From assembly GCA_963701855.1 (NCBI GenBank), contig CAVPBK010000006.1:96001-160000 (forward strand): a DNA stretch of 64,000 nt, given 5' to 3'. The translations under genes were made by a program, and so were the position numbers. Under the pieces are notes generated by a model that saw only the letters and a list, made by a program, of their open reading frames with translations, was not told the origin of the DNA and made no database searches. Every line of letters starts with the position of its first letter. The first letter of the stretch is position 1. Shown in pieces: positions 6,479 to 26,593 of this stretch. Source of the stretch: Nitrospirota bacterium. Lineage in GTDB: Bacteria > Nitrospirota > Nitrospiria > Nitrospirales > Nitrospiraceae.

Positions 6479-6606
6479 CAGGTTGTTGAAAAACAGGGGA
6501 GGGGTACTATGGATGGTTCCTTTCGCTCGCAGAGTGCGCACGGTGAGGGACCAATCCAGGCCATCCTTAGGAGAATGAGCCCTCGCATAGGATCCCCGTG
6601 TGCGTG

Positions 6607-6846
6607 TTCATCAATTTGTCCGGGACACCACAACCATCGCTCACCGTAGCCAAAGCAGCGAGAACTCTCACCATCTACAGTGTGGTCTTTCTTCAAGCCG
6701 CATTTGACTTTATTATTATCGCTTTCGTAGCCTTCCTCGCAGTAAAGCAAGTCAACCGCTTCAAGAAGGAAACGCGTCCAGCACCACCAGCAGGGCCGCC
6801 ACCAAGCGCCGCTCCTGCGACGAAATTTCCCACGATGTGGGAATGA
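6607..6846 (+). pseudogene. mscL: 3' remnant of large-conductance mechanosensitive channel MscL
   Basis: FINLSGTP...FLQAAFDFIIIAFVAFLAVKQVNRFKKE resembles the MscL periplasmic loop and TM2; N-terminus and TM1 absent. Confidence 0.7.
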
Positions 6847-6896
6847 GAAGATTCACACGATAGATGACCCGCGCAATGCAGAAGGAGGAGATCATC

Positions 6897-7649
6897 ATGC
6901 AGACATTCAAAACCGCCATCCTGGTAACAAACTTGGCCGCTCTGGCAGGCTGTGCGAACTGGGATAAGAGCCCCATTTGTCCTAACACTCACGGATGGCA
7001 GGCTTGGTCTGACAGTCGTTGCAATGCCGACAACGCATCGAAGGATATGGCCGCCGGCGTCCAGGCTGGGGCAGGAGACGAAGATACGCTTGCAGCCGAC
7101 CTTGCCGCAGCTAGGCAACGGAATGCCGAACTCGAGAGGCAGCTGGCTGATCGAGACAAGGAACTAGTTGGACTGCGCGGCGAACTCTCTTCCGAGATGA
7201 CGAAACTGAAAGCAGCTCAGCGTAGATTGATCCCGGCGCTTCGTCCTCAGATCGAGAAGGGTGACATCACCGTCGATCTTAACAATGAGCGGTTGTTGAT
7301 TAACCTGGCTTCCGGCTATCTGTTCGGGTCCGGCCAGGATGTACTAAAACCAGCGGGCGCAGATGCACTGAAGCATGTCGGGGCGGTCTTGAAAGATTTC
7401 CCAGAGTACAAGGTGGCGGTGGACGGTCATACCGACAACGTGCCAATCGGGGGCATACTGACGAAGAAGTTCCCCACGAACAAGGAGCTCTCTGAGTCCC
7501 GTGCGGCCAATGCGGCGAAGGCGCTGATCGAAGGTGGCCTCGGCACCGCGACGACGCATGGGTATGCAGACACCAAGCCGGTTGAACCGAACACGACCGA
7601 TTTGGGTCGGGCGAAGAACCGCCGCGTCGAGGTTCGCGTCACGAAGTAG
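6897..7649 (+). CDS. OmpA/MotB-family peptidoglycan-binding lipoprotein
   Basis: LAGC lipobox, coiled coil, GHTD, NKELSESRA, AKNRRVEV; AAGGAGGAG RBS. Confidence 0.9.
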   Translation: MQTFKTAILVTNLAALAGCANWDKSPICPNTHGWQAWSDSRCNADNASKDMAAGVQAGAGDEDTLAADLAAARQRNAELERQLADRDKELVGLRGELSSEMTKLKAAQRRLIPALRPQIEKGDITVDLNNERLLINLASGYLFGSGQDVLKPAGADALKHVGAVLKDFPEYKVAVDGHTDNVPIGGILTKKFPTNKELSESRAANAAKALIEGGLGTATTHGYADTKPVEPNTTDLGRAKNRRVEVRVTK

Positions 7650-8136
7650 CGCTTCCCACAGGAGAACGACGACGGGGGCCTCTCCATACCCGAGAAGCTC
7701 CCGTTGCCTCATGAGCCATTTTCACCCGTAAAAAAGAGGAGAGCTGAGAAAGTCGTCTTGAAATCTGAGGATTGATCTTCCACCGCGCGCGACTTTCTCA
7801 ACAGCCTGCAGAAACGTTTCCCTGCGCCCTAAGCATGCCAACCATAGAAGTTCTGCTCTGCCGAAACAGTATTCCCGCAGCCTACTACGATACTGAAACA
7901 AGCCCCCAACTTCGTCTCATCTCAACAGAATTCTCAACGTAGACGGCAAGGCTTATACAGAGCCAGTTCACAGCTACCTTGCTATCTACATTCTCGCGTA
8001 CCTTTCTGCCCAGCCTGTTGGAATCTTCTATCCATAGAACCGCGAGTGGACCATGGCAAGTTATTGATTTGTGGCTCCAGCTTGGGCCAACAGGCGGGGC
8101 TTCATTCTTGCTCAACTGCTCATCCAGGATTTTTGT

Positions 8137-9129
8137 ATGCCCAATGCACAGACGCGAAGAACGGAGGATTCGAGCATGGAACAACCAAGGTCCGCTCTTG
8201 ACCACTATAAACGCGGTCGTGTGCTCAAGCACGCCCACATGTTCGACCAAGCGCGCGAAGAGTTTCTGCACGTGGTCAGTGACCCTCAGTATGCCGGCAA
8301 CGCCCATGTACAGATCGCTATGTGCTTGCGGGCGACGGGGCGCTATGACGAAGCCGTCGAGGCATTCCGCCAAGCCCTGGAAGTGGGCACGTTCTCCTCC
8401 AAAGAAAAAGCGCACATCCTGTACTTCCTGAGACTCACGTTGCAGGCACTCGGTCGATACGCCGAAGCGCTGGAGGCCTATGGCTGGACCAGAAATGAGG
8501 CCCCCGGGTTCCAGGACGTGGCGCAGCGGATTAAACATCTGCTCGCAGGAGGACGCGGCCTGCTCCCCCGGCGTCGACCGGCTGCTCAGTCCGTAGTTGG
8601 AAACATGCTCAAACTTGAGGAACAACTCACGCCTCAGGTGCTGAATCTGCTAGGACAGGCCTGGACATCATTCGGCCAGTATGCGGATAGATTGGTGACC
8701 CGAGGGGACCAAAAACAGAGCCCCAGTTTCCGAGATGTGGGCCCCTCCAGTGGAGAACGAGAGCTCACGTCGACACGATGCAGTCCACCAGCATCCAGGG
8801 GTCGGAAGAGAAACACACGTCGGCACGTTCGCGTCGCAGTCCGATTGCAGAGCCACTTTTCATCAAAGAGTCAGAGAGTGGACGGTAAAGGAGAGCTGCG
8901 AGACCTCTCCCTTGCGGGCTGTCGCGTCACGAGTCTCGTGGCTGTCCCCGTGGGAGCCGAATTGGAGTGTTGTATCTTCTCGCAGGACGCAGACAATCCA
9001 TTCACCATCGACGGCGCAACGGTGCGCTGGAGCCGTCCTCAGGAATTCGGCTTGGCCTTCACCAAGATACGTCCGGGCGTACAGAGGCAAATCGCGCAGC
9101 TGTGTAGAGAACGGGTACCACTAGAATAG
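8137..9129 (+). CDS. TPR repeat + C-terminal PilZ domain protein
   Basis: TPR-like helices (GRYDEAVEAFRQAL, GRYAEALEAY); RRHVR and DLSLAG c-di-GMP-binding motifs. Confidence 0.8.
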   Translation: MPNAQTRRTEDSSMEQPRSALDHYKRGRVLKHAHMFDQAREEFLHVVSDPQYAGNAHVQIAMCLRATGRYDEAVEAFRQALEVGTFSSKEKAHILYFLRLTLQALGRYAEALEAYGWTRNEAPGFQDVAQRIKHLLAGGRGLLPRRRPAAQSVVGNMLKLEEQLTPQVLNLLGQAWTSFGQYADRLVTRGDQKQSPSFRDVGPSSGERELTSTRCSPPASRGRKRNTRRHVRVAVRLQSHFSSKSQRVDGKGELRDLSLAGCRVTSLVAVPVGAELECCIFSQDADNPFTIDGATVRWSRPQEFGLAFTKIRPGVQRQIAQLCRERVPLE

Positions 9130-9206
9130 AAGAGCTTGGGATGACGCAACGCAGTGGGCCTTTCGGCAGATGGCCGTGGACCGGCTAAACCAGTACGACA
9201 ACATCG

Positions 9207-9373
9207 GGGAGCTGCACAACGTAGTCGAAGGACTTACCATCACATGTAAGAACGAGATGGTCCAGCCGAACCACGTCCCTGTCTCTGTGCGAAGATCTGG
9301 ATTGAACGGAGAGATCGAGAAAACAGCGCTCCTGGCCTTCGGCCTCTCGGCCCAGGAGATGGAAAAGAAACTG
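9207..9373 (+). pseudogene. Diverged partial duplicate of the 3' part of the sigma-54 regulator at 5120-6478
   Basis: GGGAGCTGCACAACGT...GGAGATGGAAAAGAAACTG aligns with 6195-6370 (ELHNVVEGLTITCK...LLAFGLSAQEMEKKL). Confidence 0.85.
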
Positions 9374-9899
9374 CTGCGACCTCGTTGTATGGCTTGTTTG
9401 AACACCCTCACTCGAGCATGCGGACCACCAGAAGCGTACTGAACGATATGAATGTCAGCCACAGCCCACGGTCAAACCACCTGGCAGGATCTCGTCCGAT
9501 TGCACGGGGCGCGCCTCTCTGATGTCGAGTCAAGTAGCGACCTCGTTTCGCACACCTTTTGCACCTCGTCATGTCGCCATCAAAGTACTATCCGACTGTC
9601 TCTTTCGAACAAACCACTGCTTTCCAAGAAGTCCTGTATTCCAATAAAGTAACGAGCGGAATCAGGGACTTTTCGAAGCTCTTCGTCTAGAAAGAGATAC
9701 TGCCCATTATTCTCAGAAAACTGGAGAACACCGTCCCCGAACGACCTATCAATGTTTGATCCTATGATCCAAAAACCTCGTTTGGGACTGCCATCTAAGA
9801 GGACGGCTCCCCAACCCGTTAACTCATGATCAGCAGCTGTCTTTTGCAATTCCTCAACATGCGTTCGTAGTACGCCCCAAGAATTTGACGAAGCGATTG

Positions 9900-10535
9900 T
9901 TATGCTCTCGGTGGAACAAGTGGCCCCTCATCCATGATGGCTGAATGCAAACGCAAGAACCAGTCGTATTGTTCGGCATGGATCGGATGCAATTCCCGTA
10001 ACTGGAGAACACGCATGCCGGCCGACTGACCCCACACAACGTTACATGGGTGGACTAGTCGAGTATCATCAAAGTGCAGCAAAGCGCGATGCTGATTCGG
10101 AACGTCCCGAGGCCACCAACTGTCGTCAGTAACCACGCTCTCATCGAGCGCGACACACGGGAAGGTAGTCCGCTTTTCAGTCTGCACGGCCTTGACTAGT
10201 GCCTGACTGACCACTTGCAGGCGGCCTTCTCAAGATTTTTCGATATGGCGCTCGAAGCCGACGCCCCCTCGTACAAGGAGGTCATTGAACAATGTCTGCA
10301 TCACCCCCCCCTGAACGGCCTCAATCAAGCGTGTTAGTTGAGGCGACGCCATGACGAAAGCATCTGAAAAGACACGAAGGGAAACGTCCTGCCTCAGCAT
10401 CTTAATAATGGCAGTGCTCTCAATCATCTTGTCGTAAACTTTGACAATTCCATCAAAGTCCGCTTCGACGAGGCTAGAGAATCCTAGTACATCAATAAAC
10501 GCGACATACTGTTCGGCATTCTCCATGTGCGGCAT
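9900..10535 (-). pseudogene. Class III nucleotide-cyclase-like gene interrupted by an in-frame TGA
   Basis: YVAFIDVLGF, FSD, LVRGGV and SQALVKAV motifs; ORFs 10230-10535 and 9900-10214 share a frame, separated by TGA at 10230-10232. Confidence 0.65.
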
Positions 10536-10604
10536 TCAAACAAGGTTACAGATGATCCGTCCAAGCTCGCTCATTCTCTCCTCAGGAATGAGGACTGATT
10601 GATC

Positions 10605-10745
10605 TTCCACTGTGCGCGTTCAACGAGGGCCTTCTGTTTCTTCACTTTCTCCAGAGGGGGCAGGCAAACCGTCCTTCACTGCGCGCATCGAACGAGCACA
10701 TTCTTATCGTGCGCGTTCTGCGAGCAAGAAGGATGGGTGCCTGCT
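10605..10745. repeat. Dispersed intergenic repeat, family C
   Basis: TCACTGCGCGCATCGAACGAGCACATTCTTATCGTGCGCGTTCTGCGAGCAAGAAGGA recurs near 26703, 47287, 47483 and 3330. Confidence 0.8.
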
Positions 10746-10748
10746 CCC

Positions 10749-11768
10749 TCACCCTCCCATCGTCAGCACCACTCGGAACCGCGCCTTGCCGCTCAGCATG
10801 CGATCGTAGGCGGTCGCGGCTTGTTCGAGCGGGAAGGTCTCGACCATGGGACGAATGCCGGTCAGCGCACAGAAGTTCAGCGTGTCTTCCGAATCCCGTG
10901 CGGTCCCGGATGGCCAGCCCTGAATCGACCGTCTCGGACCAATGAGTTGAATGGGCGTGACAGTAATGGGGTCGGCTGATGCCCCCACTACCAGCAACTT
11001 GCCACCGACACCGAGTCCATCGATCAGCTCCGACATCGATTTGCTGTTCGGAGCGGTGGCCAGAATGACCGAGGCGCCGCCAAGCCTGGTCAATTCGTTT
11101 GCTGCGTTGGTCGTGTCTGTGTCGAGATAGCGAGCAGCGCCTAATTTCAGCGCCAACGCTTCCTTGTCTTGGCCCCGCCCGATCGCCACGGTGCGAAAGC
11201 CCATCTTACTGGCAAACTGAACGCCGAGATGCCCCAGTCCGCCCAGTCCCTGCACCGCCACCAGGTCGCCAGCTTGCGCACCGCTGTGGCGCAAGCTGTT
11301 GAAGGTCGTGACGCCAGCGCACAGAATCGGCGCCGCCTCGACCGGCGAGAGAGCGTCTGGAATTGCGGCAACAGCTTCGCTCCGGGCAATCATGTATTGG
11401 GCATACCCGCCATCTTCCTGGAATCCCGTGACCTGAAAATTCTGACAGCCCATGAAATCCCCACGGCGACAGGAGACGCATTGTCCGCAATGTCCGCCGT
11501 GCCACCCCACGCCGACCCGTTGGCTCTTCTTCCAAATCGTCACACCAGGTCCAACGGCATCGATCACACCGGCGACCTCGTGCCCCGTCACTCGTGGATA
11601 TTGCAGGCCAGGCCAGTGCCCTTCCTTCACAAAAACGTCACTATGACAGACGCCGCAAGCCTGTATCTTGATGCGGACGGTATGAAGCCCCGGCTCCGGC
11701 ACCTGCCGATTCACGGTTTCGAACGCGCCGCCCGGACCGCTAACTTGCACCGCAGTCATCTGTGACAT
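10749..11768 (-). CDS. Zinc-dependent alcohol dehydrogenase (MDR family)
   Basis: GVCHSD, GHE, CxxCxxC structural Zn site, GLGGLG; GAGGAGG RBS before ATG 11768. Confidence 0.93.
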   Translation of the reverse strand: MSQMTAVQVSGPGGAFETVNRQVPEPGLHTVRIKIQACGVCHSDVFVKEGHWPGLQYPRVTGHEVAGVIDAVGPGVTIWKKSQRVGVGWHGGHCGQCVSCRRGDFMGCQNFQVTGFQEDGGYAQYMIARSEAVAAIPDALSPVEAAPILCAGVTTFNSLRHSGAQAGDLVAVQGLGGLGHLGVQFASKMGFRTVAIGRGQDKEALALKLGAARYLDTDTTNAANELTRLGGASVILATAPNSKSMSELIDGLGVGGKLLVVGASADPITVTPIQLIGPRRSIQGWPSGTARDSEDTLNFCALTGIRPMVETFPLEQAATAYDRMLSGKARFRVVLTMGG

Positions 11769-16399: not shown

Positions 16400-16555
16400 C
16401 ATCCACGAAGGTTTACTACAACCGCCGATACGACGCTGCGACAAGTCTGACGGCAGGCTGCGCTCACCGCAGTCAGACGTCAGAGCCAGTCCCCTGGCCT
16501 CCGCGCGCCTGTCGCGTGTGACGACTGCGCGATTTCTGGGCAAGCCGTCATGAAG
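16400..16555 (-). repeat. Degenerate copy of palindromic MITE family B
   Basis: 16497-16554 is reverse-complement similar to TTCATGACGGTTCG...GAAATCGCGCAGTCG...ACAGGCGCGCGGAG of the 61532-61748 element. Confidence 0.65.
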
Positions 16556-16659
16556 ATTTTGATTCGTGGCGGATGTGACCGCAGAGAACTCACAAGCCGC
16601 GGCTGATGTGTTCGATCACCTAACATGTGGCGTCGTGTCGGATTGTGTCATCAGCTGTA

Positions 16660-17022
16660 TCAACGTCTCTTCAACAAGGCCCGAAACTCTTCCGGTATGG
16701 GCATGGACCTAAACGGATGAACATACGCACCGCCGGTATTCCCCACCGGCACCCAAATGCGTGAAAATAGCAACGCACCGATAATCCTCGCCACTTGACC
16801 GCTCATCTCTATTGGGTCCTGGCGTCTCCAGCCGACCTTCAGCATCCACCAATGCGCGTTCGCATGCGCGAATGCGAACGATTGGCTCAGGATATGCGCG
16901 CGTTCTAGGTGATAAAACGCCCTGTCCAGGTTATTGCCAGAGTAGTGCTCGGCTGCAGCATGCATCTCCTTCTCGTAGGCTTGTCTTCGTTCTGCGTGCA
17001 TTCTTCTACCCCTGGCAATCAA
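16660..17022 (-). CDS. DUF3703-like protein
   Basis: AFYHLERAHILSQ, H...H..ML, P.GNTGGA and MPIPEE motifs. Confidence 0.8.
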   Translation of the reverse strand: MIARGRRMHAERRQAYEKEMHAAAEHYSGNNLDRAFYHLERAHILSQSFAFAHANAHWWMLKVGWRRQDPIEMSGQVARIIGALLFSRIWVPVGNTGGAYVHPFRSMPIPEEFRALLKRR

Positions 17023-17129
17023 CCAGACATTGATGCCGAGAAAACTTCGGGCTCATTTACGAGCCGACTCTCGCGAATTACTCAGCCTTGGAAGCGTTCA
17101 AGGCACGGCTCAGAAACGTCTGTTTTGAA

Positions 17130-17585
17130 TCATTTTGTCGTGTCCGATGCCTGATGTTTTTCGGGTCGGATAAGATTTGGCTTTCCCTCTTCACCTATGA
17201 AGACGACCAATAATCTCAATGGTACTTCTCCTAAATTCTTTGCGCTATGCACGATGTTTACAACCTCCAGAAACCCGGTCCCGGCCTTAAATGTTTGTCG
17301 AGCGCCATCCTCAAATTCCACCGTCATTATTCCCTCAAGGACATGGACATAGGTTGGGGCCGAATGTATGTGGCGACCGTTTTCCTTTCCCGGTTGGATT
17401 TCGACCAGGACCGAAGCCATTTCTGCATTCTCAGTTTTGGGGTATTCAATCTTTTGGCCGCCGATCGTTGAAGAACTCTTCATCACAGCGGTGACTGTGA
17501 CATCTTGTGGCTCCGCCCACGCTGAGACGGTCGTTTGGACAAAGACCGTGATCAAGAAGATCGAGAAAATTGTTCTCATCGTCAT
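17130..17585 (-). CDS. Exported cupin-domain protein
   Basis: Signal peptide; HIH...VLEG...E....H cupin metal motif; GGAGG RBS. Confidence 0.85.
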   Translation of the reverse strand: MTMRTIFSIFLITVFVQTTVSAWAEPQDVTVTAVMKSSSTIGGQKIEYPKTENAEMASVLVEIQPGKENGRHIHSAPTYVHVLEGIMTVEFEDGARQTFKAGTGFLEVVNIVHSAKNLGEVPLRLLVVFIGEEGKPNLIRPEKHQASDTTK

Positions 17586-17639
17586 ACCTCCATTGCCATG
17601 TACTTTCGAACCGGGGAGAGGATATGTCCAACGCTCTTG

Positions 17640-17812
17640 AAAGCGGCAGTAAGACATCACTCAACGTCACTATCTCAATGAGCCGAGACTCCCCTTCAAC
17701 AACGGGAATGGTACCACAGTGACGGCACATCATTTTCATTACGGCCGACCGAACCGTATCTGTCTTCTTGGACGTCACGAGACCAGTTGACATGCTCGTG
17801 GACAATAGCCAC
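17640..17812 (-). pseudogene. CBS-domain protein remnant
   Basis: MSTGLVTSKKTDTVRSAVMKMMCRHCGTIPVVEGESRLIEIVTLSDVLLP is one CBS repeat; start region appears frameshifted after an AGGAGG RBS; no second repeat. Confidence 0.6.
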
Positions 17813-17891
17813 CTCCTGCTCACAATGCCACGACGACCGGGCCAGGTCACCGGCTTCCGACGAACGTTCGGCTCGTTCACGAGCAAAACAA

Positions 17892-17929
17892 CACGGGCGA
17901 CCCCGCACCATAGTAGGAGGTCGCCCGTG
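17892..17929 (-). terminator. Putative intrinsic terminator downstream of amoC
   Basis: CACGGGCGACC / GGTCGCCCGTG stem followed on the minus strand by TTGTTTTG. Confidence 0.5.
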
Positions 17930-18009
17930 GATGGCACTGAGGACACCAACAGCCTCTTTCTTCTAACCGGCCAGGTTTGTGGCCAGCTCACAGAAGCTGA
18001 CTGAAGGAT

Positions 18010-18810
18010 TTAGTACGGGATCACGTGCAAGCAGTCCTTGCTCTCGTTGTTCCAGACCACATCGCACAGGTTCGACATGCGCGCCACGATCTGCGCTGCC
18101 ACGCCGCCCGTGCCACCGAACAACCCGCACCAGCCCAGGGTCACAAACCCCCAGTGCAACGGCGCGGCAAAGAGTTCATCGACAAACCAGAACGCATGCC
18201 CCCACTCGTTGAGTCCCACGTTGGGCAGAATCATCATCGGCCCCACAACCGCCCCCACCAAGGGGAACGAGACCGCCTTGCTGAACTGCGGCAGTCGGGT
18301 CATGGCATAGAGATACCAGGATACGCCACAGGTTATGTACAACGGGAAGGTGAAGTAGAAGGCGATGATATGGCTCGCAGTAAAGCTCGTATCGCGGATG
18401 ATCACCTGGTGCCATGACGCATCCTGCTCAAGGGTGTAGCTCCCTGCCCAGTATACGCCAAACACATACACCGCGCCCCACATCATGAAGTAAAAATACC
18501 GCTTGAGTTCCGTCTTGGGATCCACGTTCGCCACGTTGCGATCCCGTGTGCTCCAAATCCACCCTATACAACTGGCCGAGAAGATGATGTTGGAAATCAC
18601 GTTAAACCGCCACAGGCCCATCCAGACGGTCTCGAACTCCGGCGTCATGGAGTCCAAACCGTGGGAATAGCCGAAGACGCGCTGAAACACGACCTCGGCA
18701 CCCACTGCCGTCAACATTGCGAACCAACCAATCTTAAGAGGCCTGGAGTCGTACCAGAGCGCCATATCATATCCGAGGTTGCTCTCACCGAATGTAGCTG
18801 TTTTTGCCAT
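18010..18810 (-). CDS. amoC: Ammonia monooxygenase subunit C, stand-alone copy (comammox Nitrospira-like)
   Basis: [64 protein letters not shown]; no amoA or amoB adjacent. Confidence 0.96.
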
Positions 18811-18954
18811 GTTCTTAACCTCCCTTCATATACTTAAGGACCACCTTTGTGGGTTGGTCCTGGACGTCTCTTCGAAAGATCTTGCCCACTATTTCCACCT
18901 CCTCCTTTCTATGAGATCCACACGGGCAACCGTCAATCCATGGCGACGTAAATG

Positions 18955-18970
18955 AGCAATTCACATTCCA
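18955..18970 (-). promoter_or_regulatory. Putative sigma-54 (-24/-12) promoter for amoC
   Basis: Minus strand TGGAATGTGAATTGCT = GG-N10-GC with TTGC, about 145 bp upstream of the amoC start. Confidence 0.65.
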
Positions 18971-19077
18971 GCAGAGATCTCGCATGACTTCGCCATCGAT
19001 GATGCTGAAAATCATCGGAGTGAGCGATTTCGTTCGAGAATTTCTGCAGCAAACAAAATGACGTGCCGAAGACGAGC

Positions 19078-19112
19078 TGCTGAATTATCAGCACGGTGCC
19101 GAAAAATCAGCT
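19078..19112. promoter_or_regulatory. Tandem palindromic activator-binding sites upstream of the amoC promoter
   Basis: TGCTGA-ATTA-TCAGCA-CGG-TGCCGA-AAAA-TCAGCT; the same motif pair occurs at 21737-21770. Confidence 0.7.
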
Positions 19113-19569
19113 TTCACTCGGAACACTCACAGGGGCTATGTGAGAAGCCAGGCAATGAATGGCGAGAGGTATCGAGCTTCTGTATTTAGGCCGGAAAAGT
19201 TTTCCGTTTCATACCAGGACCGATTGACAGGGTGGATGAACGAACACAACGTGGCGTGACGGCCGTTCTTATTCTATGTGCCGGTGCATGACGTCCAAGA
19301 TAGAGGCTTACGACACCCGTTGATAGTCAGGCTAGTGATTTTTGACGAGCATCGGGCGTATTATTGATCTCCTGTGATATGATCGAGACGCTACTATCTC
19401 CGTCGGTTGAGTGAGGTGCGCATTCGGCGACTCTCTGTTGAAGACTTGCCAGGAGCTTATGCTTCGCGCAATGACGGGACGAGAGAGAGTTCGCCAACAG
19501 GGCGACGGCCAGCCCAGCATCCCCTTTTGCTGGTCGTGACGGAACCTGCGTCTATTCAGGAGAGGACAT

Positions 19570-21580
19570 ATGAAACCCAACCTTCACAATGAAACCACTC
19601 AGTGGTCGGCCACGCCCGATGACCTCTCTCATTCCGATATTGAAGACCGTACAGGGGCCGAGACATTGCTTGCCGGAGAAAATCGCCTACTCGAGATGCT
19701 CGCCACCGGATGTACGCTCACGGAATTTCTTGACGCTTTGTGCCGACTCATCGAAGAGAGCGCGAGCGGAACTCTCTGTGGGATTGTGCTGGTAGATTCT
19801 ATCGGCAATCGGCTACAGCATGGTGCAGCGCCCAGCCTTCCTCTCAGCTACAACGAGTCGATCCATGGCAGACCGGTGAATCTCCTATCAGGTCCCTGCG
19901 CCATGGCGGTCTCTCTCAAAGAACAAGTGATTGCCGCCGATGTCGCGTCGGACACAAGATGGGATACATACAAATGGCGTACTCTGGCAATGGCACATGG
20001 GCTGCGGGCCTGTTGGTCCACGCCTATCTTGTCATCCAATGACACAGTATTGGGCGCCTTCGCAATCTACTCGCGCGAACCTGGTAGCCCTAGTGCGTAC
20101 CATCAACACCTCATCGGACAGATCACGCATCTGGCGACGGTAGCTATTGAGCATAAGCATAGGGAGGAGAAGCTCCGTCAAGACGAACGGGAGCTTCGGC
20201 GCATCACCGACGCCATCGATCAACGCATTGCTGTCCACGGGCCTGATGGAAAAATACTCTATGCGAACCGAGTGATGCTCGAATATAGCGGCCTGAGCAT
20301 GGAAGACGTCATGGCGGATGACTTTCGCGCACGGCTCGCTCATCCTGATGATTTGGAGCGATCACGGGTCGAGCGCCAGCAGGGGATCGAACGCGGAACC
20401 CCGTTTGAACTTGAGTTGCGCGCTCGCCGCAAGGACGGACAGCACCGCTGGTTTCTCGTCCGCTATAACCCGTTCCGGGACGATGAGGGACGGATCATTC
20501 GCTGGTATTCGACCGGAACCGACATCGACGACCGTAAACGAGACGAAGAGAGGACTCAAAAAGAAAACTTGGCATTGCGCGAAGAGATCGATCACTCTTC
20601 GATGTTCGAGGAAATCGTCGGTTCGTCGGAACGTCATCCGCAACATACTGAAGCAAGTCACCAAAGTGGCACCGTCGGATTCCACGGTACTCGTGCTGGG
20701 TGAGACCGGGACGGGGAAGGAGCTTATTGCCCGGGCCATTCACAAGCGCTCGAAACGGTCGTCCCGGGCGTTTATTACCGTCAATTGCGCGGCGATCCCC
20801 GCGTCGCTCATTGCCTCTGAGCTGTTCGGACACGAGAAAGGCGCGTTTACGGGTGCGATGCAACGGCGTCTCGGGCGATTTGAACTAGCCGATGGCGGGA
20901 CGATCTTCCTTGACGAAATCGGGGACCTACCGGCCGAGACTCAAATCGCTCTCCTGAGAGTCCTGCAAGAGGGAGAAATTGAACGGGTCGGCGGCAGCCA
21001 ATCGATTTCTGTGGACGTGCGCGTGCTGGCCGCCACGAACCGCGACCTGAAGGAGGCCATGGCGGCAGGCACATTTCGTCAGGATCTCTTTTACCGGCTG
21101 AATGTCTTCCCAATTCAGGTTCCCGCGTTACGCGAACGGATAGACGACATCCCGTTACTCGTCAGCTACCTGATTGAGCGCTATGCGAAGAGGGCCGGGA
21201 AACAGATTAGGAACATACAGAAAGAAACCCTGGAGTTATTTCAAGCATACGACTGGCCCGGCAACATTCGCGAGCTACAGAATGTCATCCAGCGAGCTAT
21301 CGTGCTGTGCGAGAACGAAACATTTTCCGTCGACGAGACCTGGCTGAAACGGGAGAAGCGCCGGCTGTCGGGGTCGGTGATTCCCTTAGGCGCCACGCTC
21401 GCCGAGCACGAAAAAGAAATTATTGAAGCTGCGTTGACGGATTGCGGGGGGCAGGTTAGCGGCCCAACCGGCGCCGCGGCCAAGCTCGGACTCCCAAGGC
21501 AGACACTTGAGTCGAAAATCACGGCCCTGGGAATTAACAAGCATCGGTTCAAGACCCGACAAGCCGACCATGCACGATAA
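19570..21580 (+). pseudogene. GAF-PAS-AAA+ sigma-54 activator (FhlA/NifA-like), frameshifted near 20630
   Basis: GAF (GPCAMA, ACWSTPI), PAS ([17 protein letters not shown]), FEEIVGSS in one frame; [23 protein letters not shown] and HTH continue in another frame after one extra base. Confidence 0.85.
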
Positions 21581-21736
21581 AAAGACCGTACGTTGTTTGC
21601 TCGCCAACTGTAAGAGCCGGTCTCTCGCGAATTGTTCCTTCTGGTTTAGACAGCTCCTCTGATTTCGTCCCCTCCCACCGCCTTCAACCCAATCGGTTCG
21701 GAGAATTAGAACGTCCCCTAATATTTCTGCCTCATT

Positions 21737-21770
21737 TGCCGATCATTCAGCAAATGCTGAAATTTCGGCA
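21737..21770. promoter_or_regulatory. Tandem palindromic activator-binding sites
   Basis: TGCCGA-TCAT-TCAGCA-AA-TGCTGA-AATT-TCGGCA. Confidence 0.7.
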
Positions 21771-21812
21771 GTTGCTTTCACGCCAAGTACAAGCATCTCA
21801 ATCGTTTACAAC

Positions 21813-21828
21813 TGGCCTCTTCATTGCA
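21813..21828 (+). promoter_or_regulatory. Putative sigma-54 (-24/-12) promoter for the STAS-like/ftsH arm
   Basis: TGGCCTCTTCATTGCA = GG-N10-GC with TTGCA, 36 bp before the next ORF. Confidence 0.7.
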
Positions 21829-21863
21829 CTAGTTTTATATCGTTCAGGTCGCAGAGGTCACAG

Positions 21864-22130
21864 ATGACAATAAAGTTTGAAAAAGAAACCCGCCGTCTCA
21901 AGACGATGATTTGTCTGAGCGGTCGGCTGCAAGCGAGACATCTGGAGGAATTGAAGAGGCAAATGGAAGGAACTCGGTCGCGAATTGCGCTGGACCTCAA
22001 CGGAGTGACGCTCGTGGATGTCGAGATAATTCGATTTCTGAACGCCTGTGAGAAATGCGGTGTCGAGCTCCTCAATTGCTGGCCGTACATACGGGAGTGG
22101 ATGATCTGTGAGAAAGGCAGGGAAGGATAA
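21864..22130 (+). CDS. Small STAS-like protein
   Basis: LSGRL...LDLNGVTLVD...IRFL pattern; GAGG RBS; directly after the sigma-54 promoter. Confidence 0.65.
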   Translation: MTIKFEKETRRLKTMICLSGRLQARHLEELKRQMEGTRSRIALDLNGVTLVDVEIIRFLNACEKCGVELLNCWPYIREWMICEKGREG

Positions 22131-22183
22131 GGCGATGCAGTTCAGACAACCACAATCAGCCCATATAAAAGGAGGGAATTCCA

Positions 22184-22300
22184 ATGCCAAATATTACTGT
22201 TCAAAATGGAGATCACACCATGAAGCACATCATTTTCTTCATTCTTGGTGCCGTGATTCTTATTGGTCTGGTACTGGCTACTGGTCTCCTCAGACCCTAA
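22184..22300 (+). CDS. Putative 38-aa single-TM micropeptide (or frameshifted secreted protein)
   Basis: AAGGAGG RBS; MPNITVQNGDHTMKHIIFFILGAVILIGLVLATGLLRP*; not in the ORF track. Confidence 0.4.
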   Translation: MPNITVQNGDHTMKHIIFFILGAVILIGLVLATGLLRP

Positions 22301-22466
22301 AACCGAATGCTACGGCTTTGGCGGATGCCCAGACCATGCGACAGATTCCTTTGTCTCAGCCCGTCAGCAAGAAGACCAAAGAGAACACGTCAAACAGAAG
22401 CGTGAGCGCAACAACCCCAATCCTTCGATCCACCTAGGATCGTGACAGAGAGAGGAACTAATTGCG

Positions 22467-24287
22467 ATGCCAGTGAATAAAAAAATATCCTTTTCGGTCC
22501 TGTGTGTCTTTCTCACGATTGGGGCAGTCATGTTCGTGCACAATTTCATCACGCCCATGCAGATGCTTGAAGAGCTTCCGTATAGCGAATTTAAGGCGCT
22601 CCTGGCGGACGGCAATGTGGCGGAGGTCACGGTCACTCGTCAGTCATTGCTCGGGAAACTGAAGCCGGAAGAAGGATCAAAAGAACCGAAGCTGTTTACG
22701 ACTGTCCGGGTTGAAGATCCTGATTTAGTCAAGGAACTCAACGTACGCAACGTCAAGTTCACCGGCATGATTGAGAATACGTTCTTGCGAGATATCATGT
22801 GGTGGGTCATTCCTGCGCTAATCTTTGGCGGTATCTGGTTTTTTGTGATTCGGCGCCTCGGTCAGGGGCTTGGACAGGGTCAAAAAGGGTTCATGACCGT
22901 GGGGAAGTCGAAGGCGAAGATCTATGCGGAGAAGGATACGAAAGTGACTTTCGCGGATGTAGCCGGCGTGGAGGAGGCGAAGGAAGAACTGGGCGAGGTG
23001 ATTGATTTTCTCAAGACGCCGGAAAAATTCACGCGTCTCGGAGGAAAGATTCCGAAAGGCATCCTGCTCGTCGGTCCGCCTGGAACCGGCAAGACGCTCC
23101 TGGCTCGCGCTGTGGCAGGAGAGGCAGGCGTGACGTTTTTCAGCATCAGCGGGTCCGAGTTTGTGGAAATGTTTGTGGGAGTGGGGGCCTCCCGCGTGCG
23201 AGATCTGTTCGAGCAGGCGAAGATCAAGGCACCCTGTATTATCTTCATCGACGAACTGGATGCGTTGGGAAAAGCCCGTGGGGCAGGACCCATGGCGCAT
23301 GAGGAGCGTGAACAAACCCTGAATCAGTTGCTGGTCGAGATGGACGGCTTTGATCCCCGCATCGCCGTCATTCTGATGGCGGCGACCAATCGGCCTGAAA
23401 TCTTGGATCCTGCACTGTTGCGGCCAGGCCGGTTCGACAGGCAAGTCTTGGTCGATCGCCCGGATAAGATCGACCGTCTGGCCATCTTGCGCGTTCATGC
23501 CAAGAAGGTAACCCTCGGTCTCGATGCGGACCTCGAGGTGATCGCTGGGATGACCCCAGGATTCTCAGGCGCCGACCTCGCCAATATCGTCAATGAAGCA
23601 ACGCTCTTGGCTGTGCGCCGGAATAAAGGGCAGGTGGGTCTCCCAGAATTGCAGGAAGCGGTGGAGCGGGTCGTCGCCGGGTTGGAGAAGAAAAACCGAG
23701 TCCTCAACAAGATGGAGAAGGAACGCGTCGCCTACCATGAAGTGGGCCACGCCTTGGTAGCGTTGTCGTTTCCTGGCTCAGACCCGATACAGAAGATCTC
23801 CATCATTCCTCGCGGGATTGCTGCCTTGGGTTATACCCTGCAGCTTCCGACGGAGGATCGCTTTCTGATGGCCAAGACGGAGTTGGAAAACAAAATTGCC
23901 GTCTTACTCGGAGGGCGGAATGCGGAAGAATTGATCTTCGGCGAGGCCTCCACGGGCGCACAGAACGACTTGGTCAGGGCCACGGACATTGCCAAGAGCA
24001 TGGTCAAATCCTACGGGATGAGCGAAAAGCTAGGCACCGTTACCCTGAATCGTGAACGCCAGCCTCTCATCATGCAGATTCAGGCGCCTCAGGAAAAAGG
24101 CGACTACTCTGAGGAGACCGCCCGCGAGATCGACTGTGAAGTGCGCCGTATCATCGACGAGCAATACGATCGCGTGAGATGGCTCTTAGCTGAAAAGAAA
24201 CGCGCACTCGTAGAAGGAGCAAGAGCCCTGCTCGATCGCGAGGTAATCAGTGGTAGTGAGCTTAAAGTCATCATGGACAATCACTGA
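22467..24287 (+). CDS. ftsH: ATP-dependent zinc metalloprotease FtsH (probable paralog)
   Basis: Two TMs, [17 protein letters not shown] motif (RPGRFDR), HEVGH zinc motif. Confidence 0.96.
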
Positions 24288-24390
24288 AATGCAACCGCAC
24301 ATATGCAGATGCTCGAAATCCTAGCAGGAAGAACAGCGGGAACGCCGCGAAGTGTCAGACGCAAGACCCCATCAAGAAAGGAGACATGTA

Positions 24391-24633
24391 ATGAGGTGCG
24401 CACGCTGTGATGGATTGATGGTGCATGAGACGTTTGAAGACCTTATAGGACTCGGGTCAGGTGACCATGAGTATGCCGGATGGCGCTGCATCAACTGTGG
24501 GGCGATTGTCGATCCCGTGATTCCTGCACATCAATGTCTCACGTCGCAGACAGCAGCGACTAATCCGGCATTGCACGCTGTCTCCTTAGTCTCAAGGGCC
24601 AGACCCAGCAGAAGCAGACGATCAACATGGTGA
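24391..24633 (+). CDS. Small zinc-ribbon protein
   Basis: MRCARCDGLM...WRCINCGAIVD; AAGGAG RBS. Confidence 0.7.
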   Translation: MRCARCDGLMVHETFEDLIGLGSGDHEYAGWRCINCGAIVDPVIPAHQCLTSQTAATNPALHAVSLVSRARPSRSRRSTW

Positions 24634-24882
24634 TCCAATGATACCCGATAACCACGCAGAGATACGGAGACCGGTTTCTTCTACTCGTTTGGATGGCGCC
24701 GCAGCTCTGCACGGCGTCTCCCGCTGAGGTGGGCAGGCCTCTCCTTACACCCCGGAGGGGCCTGTCTCTTCAGTGAACAATCAGAAGCGGATGACAAGAA
24801 TGAAGGAGCGGGACTGTCGGAAGTGATGAGGAGGGCAGCATGGACCAGAATTTAGCAAGGTCCCAAAACAGGGAGGTTGGCC

Positions 24883-25464
24883 ATGATTAAGCAAATGACA
24901 CGAGCAGGTTCTATGGTGCTCCTTCTTGTTGCCACGCTGCACCTCGGCTTAGCCGCTGCGCATGGAGGAGCGGATTTGGAATTAGACCCTTGCGTGCGCT
25001 GGGTCGGTGAAAGCGCAGTGCATTTCAGTACCTACCAGCCGCAGTATGAACTGAAAGCTCAATACTGCACAGACATTCCCAAGACAGGCGAGACCTTCCT
25101 GGTCGTGGACCTCGTGGACCCGGCATTGCGTAACGTGCCGGTCGGCATGCGAATCGTGAAGGGGAACGGAAACAATGAGGCAGAAGTTCAGACGGTGGCA
25201 GACTGGCGTCCAAGCCATCACCCGGCCGGAGTAATCAGTGGAGAAACCAATCTGGATGAGGGTCTGTACAGAGTCATCATTACAGCGGAGGGGCGGAATC
25301 CTTTGCGCTATCAGTATCTCTTGCGTGTACAGATGATCGATTATCAGAAGTTGGTGAATTCCGTGGTGGTACCACTGCTCGGCGTACTGTTATGCGCCTG
25401 GCTGGGGTACAAGCTCCTACGATCGAAGTGGCTGCGGAATCGGTGGGCAGGCGTCCGTTCGTAG
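24883..25464 (+). CDS. amoD: AmoD/AmoE (PmoD)-family periplasmic copper protein with C-terminal TM anchor
   Basis: Signal peptide then AHGG; D.C...G...HFSTYQPQ, YCTDIP.TG.T.LVVDLVD..LR..PV signature; C-terminal TM; GGAGG RBS. amoD vs amoE not resolved. Confidence 0.8.
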   Translation: MIKQMTRAGSMVLLLVATLHLGLAAAHGGADLELDPCVRWVGESAVHFSTYQPQYELKAQYCTDIPKTGETFLVVDLVDPALRNVPVGMRIVKGNGNNEAEVQTVADWRPSHHPAGVISGETNLDEGLYRVIITAEGRNPLRYQYLLRVQMIDYQKLVNSVVVPLLGVLLCAWLGYKLLRSKWLRNRWAGVRS

Positions 25465-25524
25465 GAAGCCGGGCGCTCCAGCGCGCGAGCACATGGTTCA
25501 CCATTTCAGAGTAGGAGGCTGACA

Positions 25525-25764
25525 ATGGCTATGCAATTTCTGAAACTTTCTGGCCTGCGCTTCGTGACATCGCAAACCGACACACCTTTGAAAAAGAAAG
25601 GCAAGATTCCCTGGTATGTCTACTTTATCGGAGCCGCAATCTATACCGCTCTTGCCGGTTGGCTGTTCGCGGAATCGTCTCCTCTGGCATGGATTTGCCT
25701 CATCAGCGCGCCGGTGGGGTTTTTCTATGCCTGGGGAGCCTGGAAAAAAGAGAAACAAGGCTAG
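25525..25764 (+). CDS. Small two-TM membrane protein
   Basis: AGGAGG RBS; two hydrophobic segments flanked by Lys clusters. Confidence 0.6.
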   Translation: MAMQFLKLSGLRFVTSQTDTPLKKKGKIPWYVYFIGAAIYTALAGWLFAESSPLAWICLISAPVGFFYAWGAWKKEKQG

Positions 25765-25942
25765 AGGTACAGTCTAAACCCTGTGCGACAACGAGCCCGA
25801 CTATGGTGCGATGGACAGAATCCACTCCTTAATAAGCCCGGTTGCCGAGCTGAGGTCGCTAGAGAGCACTGGATCGAAAAAAGACGGCCAATGGCCAACT
25901 GCTCCAATCAAGCGGAGACGTCATGGATGAGGAGGAAATCTG

Positions 25943-26593
25943 ATGGAATCATTGATGGACACTCTTGTCGACCGTCGGGCAAACAACAATGCGGGTCTTA
26001 TACCGTTCCCCGCTCCAACCTATGCGCAAGCTCGCTGGTTCTTCGGCGGTTTGGTACGCGCCATGTATCGACTCGAGGTGGTCGGCGCCGAGCGCCTCCC
26101 CATCACCGGGCCTGTGGTGTTCGCACCGAATCACGACTCGTTGCTCGACGGAATCGTCCTCGGAGCAGCGATCTCAAGGGAACTCCGTTTCCTCGCGAAG
26201 GCAGAGCTCTGGCAGTCCCGACTGCTTGGGTGGATGCTCGACGGGCTCGGCGCGATCGGGATTACGCGTGGTTGCGGCGACCACCTCGCTCTCGCTCGGA
26301 TGCGGCAGGCGCTCAACGCAGGACAGGCTGTTGCAATCTTCCCGCAAGGCGCCGTTCGCGGCGACCGCGTGTGGCACCGGGGTGCCGCGCGCATGGCGCT
26401 CGTGACGGGCGCGCCTCTTGTGCCGGTCCGCCTTGTCGGCACAGCACGGGCTCTCTCACGGGACAGAATCGGCTTCCCGCGGTTGCGAGTCATCTTCGGA
26501 GAGCCTATCAAAGTCATGCGGGAGCAGGAAGAGCCGATTGCGGCGACAAAGCTGACCGAGCGGTTACGAATCGCGGTCGAATCGCTGACCTAG
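25943..26593 (+). CDS. Lysophospholipid acyltransferase (PlsC family)
   Basis: NHDSLLD (HX4D), FLAKAEL, IFPQG motifs. Confidence 0.88.
   Translation: MESLMDTLVDRRANNNAGLIPFPAPTYAQARWFFGGLVRAMYRLEVVGAERLPITGPVVFAPNHDSLLDGIVLGAAISRELRFLAKAELWQSRLLGWMLDGLGAIGITRGCGDHLALARMRQALNAGQAVAIFPQGAVRGDRVWHRGAARMALVTGAPLVPVRLVGTARALSRDRIGFPRLRVIFGEPIKVMREQEEPIAATKLTERLRIAVESLT

Follow-up and report, generated by a model that had tools for sequence, protein, structure and literature searches.

In the genome of a Nitrospirota bacterium of the family Nitrospiraceae (GenBank assembly GCA_963701855.1), a stand-alone copy of the ammonia monooxygenase (AMO) gene amoC stands divergent from the gene of a sigma-54 activator, on the other side of which follows an array of small genes with a complete ftsH and a gene of the PmoD family. 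The window is a stretch of 64,000 nucleotides (nt) of contig CAVPBK010000006.1 (positions 96,001 to 160,000 of the forward strand), and the island described here occupies window positions 17130 to 25764 of an assembly, labeled G000, that comprises 15 contigs and 4.3 Mb and is 97% complete. Judged by sequence comparison, the cluster is a conserved sigma-54 regulon restricted to comammox Nitrospira, and some of the species have a dedicated FtsH paralog in it. We propose that it forms one divergent regulon, whose likeliest role, to which we give an even chance, is the conditional exchange, assembly or quality control of the AmoC-centered part of AMO. Every element that an initial annotation had listed for the island was found there in the open reading frame (ORF) list and in Pfam and NCBIfam scans. 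As the arrangement recurs in many species of the genus, it is, on that comparative ground, no chance neighborhood.

The initial annotation had called the island sigma-54-controlled, and both arms conform to this. The leftward arm, which leads to amoC, and the rightward arm, which begins with a STAS-like gene, each have a -24/-12 box with GG and GC doublets 10 nt apart and putative activator sites further upstream. The STAS-arm box lies 36 nt before the start codon of the STAS-like gene and is conserved in 28 of 28 loci. The amoC-arm box precedes the amoC start by about 145 nt, and the aligned box is conserved in all 21 amoC arms. Each arm's box is unique in the genome, which also carries rpoN. 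Upstream of each box are two 16-base inverted repeats (TGCYGA-N4-TCRGCW) spaced 18 to 19 nt apart, and such pairs, allowing at most one mismatch per site, occur in 21/21 amoC arms and 28/28 STAS arms. The motif has 11 distinct places in the 4.3-Mb genome, four of which make up the two pairs here, with no pair elsewhere; since it was derived from this locus, that count is not an independent test, and the finding is the match between the two arms. The other three amoC copies of the genome have neither box nor repeat within 400 nt. Across the window, sigma-54 consensus matches are at chance level (5 found, 5.4 expected), and the case for sigma-54 therefore rests on conservation rather than on a window-wide count. 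With a shared paired motif and -24/-12 boxes at every locus examined, sigma-54 control of both arms is well supported at the level of predicted promoters. Counts of sigma-70 and terminator consensus were not above those of shuffles, which argues neither for nor against a single transcription unit.

The divergent gene between the two arms encodes a GAF-PAS sigma-54 activator, as initially described (Pfam GAF_2, PAS_3, Sigma54_activat, AAA_lid_14 and HTH_8), with a score of 243 bits to PF00158 and a GAFTGA loop in the translation. Like enhancer-binding proteins of the NifA, NorR and FhlA types, it combines an N-terminal GAF domain, an AAA+ domain with GAFTGA and a C-terminal Fis-type helix-turn-helix (HTH), and as in those systems, paired inverted repeats lie upstream, about 45 to 140 nt from the -24/-12 box. 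In contrast to them it has an added PAS domain, and for every named NCBIfam regulator its score stays under the equivalog cut-off. A LOV-type identity of the PAS domain was considered and rejected; structural likeness was weak (E ~1e-5 or weaker) and the flavin-Cys motif was not seen. In the assembly, the activator is split over two frames by one extra base at 20630. This base is absent from contigs of both public DNA runs that cover the site (X1 and X4), and one covering contig otherwise differs from the window by 1 letter in 276; the best-matching run may be the window's own source sample. Orthologs in all relatives examined are single frames of about 670 amino acids (aa) with the same domains (669 aa at locus L039), and removing the base restores the frame. 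Because the base is missing in public reads and relatives have one frame, the frameshift is most likely an assembly error and not the mark of a pseudogene. This activator would be the protein that binds the repeats.

Activators related to that of the island, about 80% identical in the AAA+-HTH part, occur in two other genera (L102, G074:C22, and L104, G185:C1). There, the order is activator, the same repeat, a box nearer the consensus, a STAS-like gene, a secreted cupin and an NmrA-like gene, with an alpha/beta hydrolase in addition at L102. The island also has a cupin gene, whose product is about 31% identical to the cupins behind the STAS-like gene in those genera. The occurrence of repeat and box beside related activators elsewhere supports assigning the repeat to this activator family. 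Furthermore, since the same cassette is found there with unrelated genes, the unit of activator, repeat, box and STAS-like gene is older than its AMO cargo. These comparisons suggest a place for the STAS-like protein in the regulatory circuit.

The initial annotation had proposed a synteny search across comammox genomes as a check, and the cluster proved to be conserved across species representatives of the genus. Among 20 loci anchored on an ftsH like that of the island (class A1, defined below), the STAS-like gene lies upstream in 19, the activator is present in 18 and the AmoE-like gene of the PmoD family follows downstream in 18. A divergent amoC, whole or partial, is found in 16 of the 20, and contigs end before the place of amoC in two more. 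The exceptions are G289, without any of the neighbors, and G299, with a different upstream side. The flanks are also common to these loci: band-7, a 118-aa ORF and an esterase adjoin one end, an acyltransferase and mutS2 the opposite one. By comparison of gene content, the core of the array is the activator, the STAS-like gene, a 38-codon ORF (pep38), the zinc-ribbon gene, the AmoE-like gene and a gene for a 79-aa protein (small79), into which A1 is an insertion. The insertion point is constant, between pep38 and the zinc-ribbon gene, and pep38 is present in all A1-less loci examined. In a tree of the activators, loci without ftsH nest among those with it, and well-supported branches force at least three changes. 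Given this nesting and the single origin of A1, ftsH was probably gained once and lost several times.

Some loci of the genus show further rearrangements. At L106 (G286:C75), L107 (G303:C58) and L047 (G299:C101), the STAS operon is directly preceded by the 3' end of a type-B ftsH; the three junctions are homologous and 87 to 94% identical, with the activator lost or truncated and the repeat and sigma-54 box kept. Alongside the amoC-ftsH linkage of a second comammox genus described below, these loci provide one more hint. At L051 (G287) and L052 (G292), an insertion of about 1.8 kb separates the activator from the STAS-like gene. The activator 3' end, the repeat and the box are duplicated on its flanks, and amoC is reduced to a short fragment.

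The ftsH of the island is complete, as initially annotated, scoring 783 bits against the TIGR01241 cut-off of 600, with FtsH_ext, AAA and Peptidase_M41 domains and intact motifs (GPPGTGKT at 203, DE at 262 and HEVGH at 424). It is the only gene in this assembly with both AAA and M41 domains. Across the family, most genomes have one copy about 53% identical to it (type B) and one that is 66 to 86% identical. Within the genus, identity to the island copy separates three classes, namely A1 (93 to 97%), A2 (83 to 88%) and B (52 to 53%). In the closest relative, type B stands in the order tilS-hpt-ftsH-folP-glmM, beside hem and ribF genes. This tilS-hpt-ftsH-folP context, which marks the housekeeping FtsH, is that of type B, to which A1 is about 50 to 53% identical. 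The closest relative's 20-kb type B region (hem, ribF, tilS, folP; L067) has no DNA match in this assembly, and the flanks of its A2 copy map to contig ends at C1:210403-210578 and C6:1629420-1632501. With the A2 flanks at contig ends and the 20-kb B region absent, the missing A2 and B copies are best explained by assembly gaps. A1 is thus a third paralog beside the A2 and B copies of its relatives and not the housekeeping ftsH; the initial annotation had named the opposite outcome as one that would refute its reading.

A quick maximum-likelihood tree placed the 17 A1 sequences in one clade (100% SH-aLRT), with B as a separate deep clade. Within the genus, the A1 clade branches from among the A2 copies of genomes that bear amoC, and the same result was obtained when the tree was repeated. 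By its position in this tree, A1 is a recent, lineage-specific third ftsH paralog. It was found at 93% identity or more in 21 other genomes of the genus, which together with G292, assigned by synteny, and G000 gives 23. All 23 are amoC-positive, compared to 52 of the 85 genomes in the genus overall. A1 has remained about 94 to 97% identical, with motifs intact, across 15 or more species. Between 17 A1 and 12 A2 sequences, 15 sites show fixed differences, of which 10 are in residues 11 to 33 (the N-terminal tail and first membrane helix), one is at 58 and four are at 568 to 587; none falls in the AAA+ core or the catalytic protease core. Twenty ftsH loci drawn from across the family had none of the window's neighbors and proved to be A2-type contexts. 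In the closest relative, the A2 copy (L057, G330:C1:51000-70999) is neighbored by genes for a P-type cation ATPase, a VIT1-family protein, a CopD-like protein and a 1622-aa protein with multicopper oxidase domains. At L042 (G285:C22, 9317-12004), the A1 frame is extended to 896 aa by a second copy of residues 312 to 606 beside a run of N, likely an assembly artefact.

The amoC of the island stands alone, as had been noted; amoA and amoB occur once each in the genome, both on another contig, C5. The encoded protein scores 347 bits to PF04896, 337 to NF041641 (AmoC_BACT; cut-off 319) and 331 to TIGR03078 (cut-off 280.6). The genome has four amoC genes, and the island copy is 89 to 93% identical to the other three and 92.9% identical to the operonic one. 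Downstream of it lies a remnant corresponding to residues 1 to 57 of the 150-aa CBS protein encoded after an amoC copy on C15 (63% identity by tblastn; 75.7% over 144 nt by blastn). In a tree of 30 AmoC sequences from six genomes, the island copies are not monophyletic and are 88 to 98% identical to other copies. Together, the remnant and the lack of monophyly point to turnover or gene conversion of amoC copies. The cupin gene beside amoC is found only in some relatives (L053, L077, L086 and partly L080).

The gene that the initial annotation had described as amoD/pmoD-like encodes a 195-aa protein that indeed matches PmoD of PDB 6CPD (E 2.3e-8) and is 66% identical to the first gene product of the main cluster on C5, amoE-D-D-copCD-amoCAB, in which amoCAB stands behind three PmoD-family genes, copC and a copD-cytochrome c fusion. 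C39, H49 and C64 are conserved, with both cysteines invariant, and both termini are hydrophobic. PmoD proteins are described as having a signal peptide, a C-terminal membrane helix and, in the periplasmic domain, two Cys that are strictly conserved, with CuA-type ligand motifs Cx7MxH or Cx8MH (PMC6189053). The island protein is like this PmoD/AmoD/AmoE family in its signal-like N-terminus, two Cys and C-terminal helix, in its likeness to 6CPD and in the known proximity of such genes to lone pmoC. It differs from the family in that the gene is part of a sigma-54 operon and not placed behind amoCAB. The spacing is of the AmoE type. The C5 main cluster also contains an IS1595-type transposase gene between copD and amoC (L012 8488-9408).

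Linkage of an extra ftsH to an extra amoC is also found in a second comammox genus. The sample here was five complete, amoC-rich genomes, chosen for completeness and not for the position of ftsH, with six loci (L108 to L113). In all five genomes an extra amoC is followed, at a distance of 0.1 to 0.3 kb and on the same strand, by an extra ftsH. In five of the six loci the two are separated by a divergent amoA, and an AmoE-like gene is beside ftsH in three of the six. Relative to type B, identity is about 76% for the linked ftsH (about 50% relative to A1) and about 86% for the hpt-ftsH-folP copies in these genomes. In the tree, the deep A/B split leaves the linked copies on the side of B. Since the FtsH lineages differ, A-type in the island and B-type there, the linkage to an extra amoC arose independently in the two genera. 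The second-genus locus resembles the island in having an extra FtsH paralog adjoining extra AMO subunit genes, and differs in its B-type FtsH lineage and in that ftsH is co-directional with amoC-amoA. The stretches fetched from this genus had no match to the island genes for the activator, the STAS-like protein or the 38-aa peptide. In two second-genus genomes, near-identical further ftsH copies are found elsewhere (L115, L119).

We propose that the GAF-PAS enhancer-binding protein binds the paired inverted repeats flanking its own gene and activates two promoters. The leftward promoter would drive the spare amoC, and the rightward promoter the STAS-like gene, one or two 38-aa peptides, FtsH A1, the zinc ribbon, the AmoE-type protein and the 79-aa protein. 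In this way, fresh AmoC and accessory membrane parts would be delivered as the extra FtsH clears away those that are damaged or unassembled. We infer AmoC, or AMO, to be the substrate of FtsH A1; an inducing signal and any role of the small proteins would likewise have to be assumed. The initial annotation had arrived at a similar replace-and-repair mechanism, which is still a conjecture drawn from gene content and has gained weight from the amoC-ftsH linkage in the second genus. In photosystem II, dedicated FtsH paralogs remove damaged D1. By analogy, the island has an extra FtsH beside the housekeeping one, and a damage-prone membrane oxidoreductase subunit with spare gene copies. In contrast to photosystem II, the linkage here is genomic and regulatory.

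The nearest precedent among nitrifiers is the singleton amoC3 of Nitrosomonas, which responds to starvation, heat and oxidative stress and has been linked to recovery from them (PMC13058606, PMC6311188). In N. europaea it is reported to be sigma-32 controlled and 67.5% identical to amoC1/2 (PMC13058606). The island copy is similar to amoC3 in being non-operonic and, by its predicted promoter, regulated apart from amoCAB. In contrast to amoC3, it has a sigma-54-type box and putative activator sites, is 93% identical to the operonic copy and forms no separate clade. Some lone pmoC genes have PmoD genes in their vicinity (Fisher et al. 2018, PMC6189053). A preprint on comammox AMO describes two unassigned membrane helices and an increase in amoC transcripts under allylthiourea (bioRxiv 10.64898/2026.09.02.748776). 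Our literature searches found no report of FtsH, PmoD-type or small-protein operons coupled to amoC3, and no paper linking comammox, ftsH and amoC, the one match being an unrelated Nitrosospira transcriptome. Searches for comammox amoC with sigma-54, or for FtsH with ammonia monooxygenase and Nitrospira, returned nothing relevant, and the accessible part of a 2026 AMO review does not mention FtsH.

We speculate further, and only tentatively, on a reading that we hold to be possible and on the whole doubtful. There would be at least two independent wirings of an extra FtsH to a spare AmoC, and AmoC, as bearer of the proposed active site, would pass through a D1-like cycle of damage and replacement, switched in the genus of the island by the GAF-PAS activator. 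The 38-aa peptide, the 79-aa protein and the AmoE-type protein would be unrecognized AMO-associated helices. As part of the same joint proposal, these helices could match the unassigned densities in the comammox AMO cryo-electron microscopy map.

Several observations weigh against a role of the regulon in AmoC exchange and quality control. First, ftsH is not always part of it. Ten loci anchored on the activator were examined in genomes without A1, and in nine of them the array from the STAS-like gene to small79 lacks ftsH (the contig of the tenth ends just after the STAS-like gene). Its repeated loss shows that FtsH is dispensable for the module. At the same ten loci, amoC is beside the activator in six and absent in four. 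Second, three species keep the promoter and repeats without the activator, and by origin the regulator is not AMO-specific, given that it drives cupin and NmrA-like genes in other genera. Third, the island AmoC is, by sequence, a spare copy and no specialized isoform. Fourth, all island copies of the AmoE-type protein that were aligned read Cx7AxH, with Ala for the Met of Cx7MxH, while the operonic paralogs retain Cx7MxH and Cx8MH. Contigs from RNA libraries (X17, X18) cover pieces of all genes at 90 to 95% likeness, which is no proof of transcription; their depth on amoC and on the AAA core of ftsH adds up signal from many organisms and was left out of account. Finally, the species compared are related, so that the counts given here are not independent, and two genomes flagged as unpublished (G053, G006), from which no stretch was taken, may be among those in the family-wide tallies.

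An alternative hypothesis, which we consider unlikely while granting it some weight, is that the island is a copper or envelope-stress module. The products of the regulon would then be small membrane proteins and a periplasmic copper protein of the PmoD type, FtsH would act as a general membrane protease and amoC would be no more than one copper-dependent client among several. Copper is bound by proteins of the PmoD family, whose genes are found close to those for copper handling (PMC6189053), a paralogous unit of this genome (L014, with a 3xGAF activator, zinc ribbon, AmoE-like gene and methyltransferase) stands beside TetR/RND efflux genes, and the A2 ftsH of a close relative is surrounded by the P-type ATPase, VIT1, CopD-like and multicopper oxidase genes described above. 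However, the AmoE-like protein of the island lacks the Met of the published ligand motif, amoC has its own promoter and repeat pair in 21/21 loci, and the extra ftsH of the second genus is tied to extra amoC (as amoC-amoA in five of six loci) and not to copper genes.

A little less probable again is a loose neighborhood, in which a regulator-STAS cassette with changing cargo came to lie beside a duplicated amoC, and an ftsH duplicate that landed in the operon serves as a general stress protease. The cassette does carry different cargo in different genera, the adjacency of ftsH and of amoC has each been lost in some lineages, and amoC copies are mobile and easily converted, as the CBS remnant and the non-monophyletic island copies indicate. 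Such a neighborhood is difficult to reconcile with a repeat pair and box that precede amoC in 21 of 21 loci and occur nowhere else in the genome, with the retention of A1, motifs intact, at about 94 to 97% identity across 15 or more species, or with the linkage of a different FtsH lineage to amoC in another genus. That the island ftsH is itself the housekeeping FtsH is very improbable; it is the only gene with AAA and M41 domains in this assembly, but relatives carry type B (tilS-hpt-ftsH-folP) plus an A2 copy, and in this 97%-complete assembly of 15 contigs the 20-kb B region is unmatched and the A2 flanks lie at ends of C1 and C6.

How nitrifiers keep ammonia monooxygenase working is an open question. 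The enzyme is easily inactivated, work with it outside the cell has so far met with little success, and the role of the ubiquitous extra amoC copies is little understood beyond one Nitrosomonas study. The island offers a promoter pair, a candidate regulator with putative sites, a protease paralog and three small membrane proteins to seek in AMO preparations. The linkage of amoC to different FtsH lineages in two genera makes protease-mediated AMO turnover a concrete and testable hypothesis, with relevance to nitrification inhibitors, recovery after starvation and the persistence of comammox bacteria in soils and water treatment.

The features of the island are listed in Table 1. The cupin, the CBS remnant, pep38 and the 79-aa membrane ORF were not in the initial annotation.

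Table 1. Features of the amoC island, in window coordinates
Feature	Position	Strand	Basis or remark
Cupin-domain protein, secreted	17130..17660	-	Pfam Cupin_2, 48 bits; downstream of amoC
CBS-domain gene remnant	17641..17811	-	tblastn/blastn likeness to CBS gene on C15
Stand-alone amoC, island copy	18010..18810	-	Pfam and NCBIfam, above cut-offs
Sigma-54-type -24/-12 box, amoC arm	18955..18970	-	GG-N10-GC
Tandem inverted-repeat pair, amoC arm; putative activator sites	19078..19112	.	TGCYGA-N4-TCRGCW, 16 bases each
GAF-PAS-AAA+-HTH sigma-54 enhancer-binding protein	19570..21580	+	Two frames in assembly
Tandem inverted-repeat pair, STAS arm	21737..21770	.	Same repeat; upstream of STAS-arm promoter
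Sigma-54-type -24/-12 box, STAS arm	21813..21828	+	GG-N10-GC
STAS-like protein, 88 aa	21864..22130	+	Pfam STAS_2, 23 bits, below cut-off
pep38, 38-codon ORF, single-helix membrane peptide	22184..22300	+	Unannotated; conserved ORF
ftsH paralog A1, complete	22467..24287	+	TIGR01241, 783 bits
Zinc-ribbon protein	core 24391..24633; ORF may start at 24352	+	CxxC...CxxC
Conserved double hairpin	24695..24775	+	RNAalifold; between zinc-ribbon and AmoE-like genes
AmoE-type PmoD-family protein, 195 aa	24877..25464	+	Match to PDB 6CPD
small79, 79-aa hydrophobic membrane protein	25525..25764	+	Last gene of conserved array

For the STAS-like gene, the ORF is present as initially described, and its label as a STAS protein fared less well. 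The score of 23 bits is below the STAS_2 cut-off of 29.2 (a relative's protein reaches 25.9), profile matches to antagonists in the PDB are insignificant (E 0.16 and 1.3), and the AF2 (AlphaFold2) model is all-helical and of low confidence (pLDDT 66.6). The protein is 75 to 94% identical across 24 sequences, and in all variants of the locus its gene comes directly after the promoter, ahead of the others. pep38, preceded by an AGGAGGG Shine-Dalgarno sequence 7 nt upstream, is present in all locus variants with a constant length of 38 codons, in one copy here and in two tandem copies in most relatives. Its variable alignment columns number 15 at the second codon position and 26 and 26 at the other positions. 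A complex prediction for AmoA, AmoC and the 38-aa peptide, run without controls, scored 0.00 and counts neither for nor against an association. The last gene, small79, has no Pfam or NCBIfam family, is kept at the same place in the loci examined and has one paralog of 78% identity elsewhere in the genome.

The zinc-ribbon gene was likewise borne out, with a conserved CxxC...CxxC and a conserved core of about 63 aa. It belongs to a multi-copy family with at least 12 further matches in the genome; its look-alikes in the Atlas are Nitrospirota hypothetical clusters without a Pfam family, and several orthologs in relatives are truncated or have a stop codon. Between this gene and the AmoE-like gene, RNAalifold folds the conserved double hairpin with 27 pairs, five of them with double-sided change. 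Rfam has no match to the hairpin, nor any across 16500 to 26500, and no T-run lies behind it. Part of this arrangement recurs in the same genome at L014 (G000:C6:1078000-1094000, about 6484 to 11471), where the paralogous unit consists of a sigma-54 activator of 864 aa with three GAF domains, a zinc-ribbon ORF, an AmoE-like gene (64% identical) and a methyltransferase gene, adjoining the TetR and RND efflux genes. The spacer before the AmoE-like gene of L014 is 76% identical to window positions 24656 to 24849.

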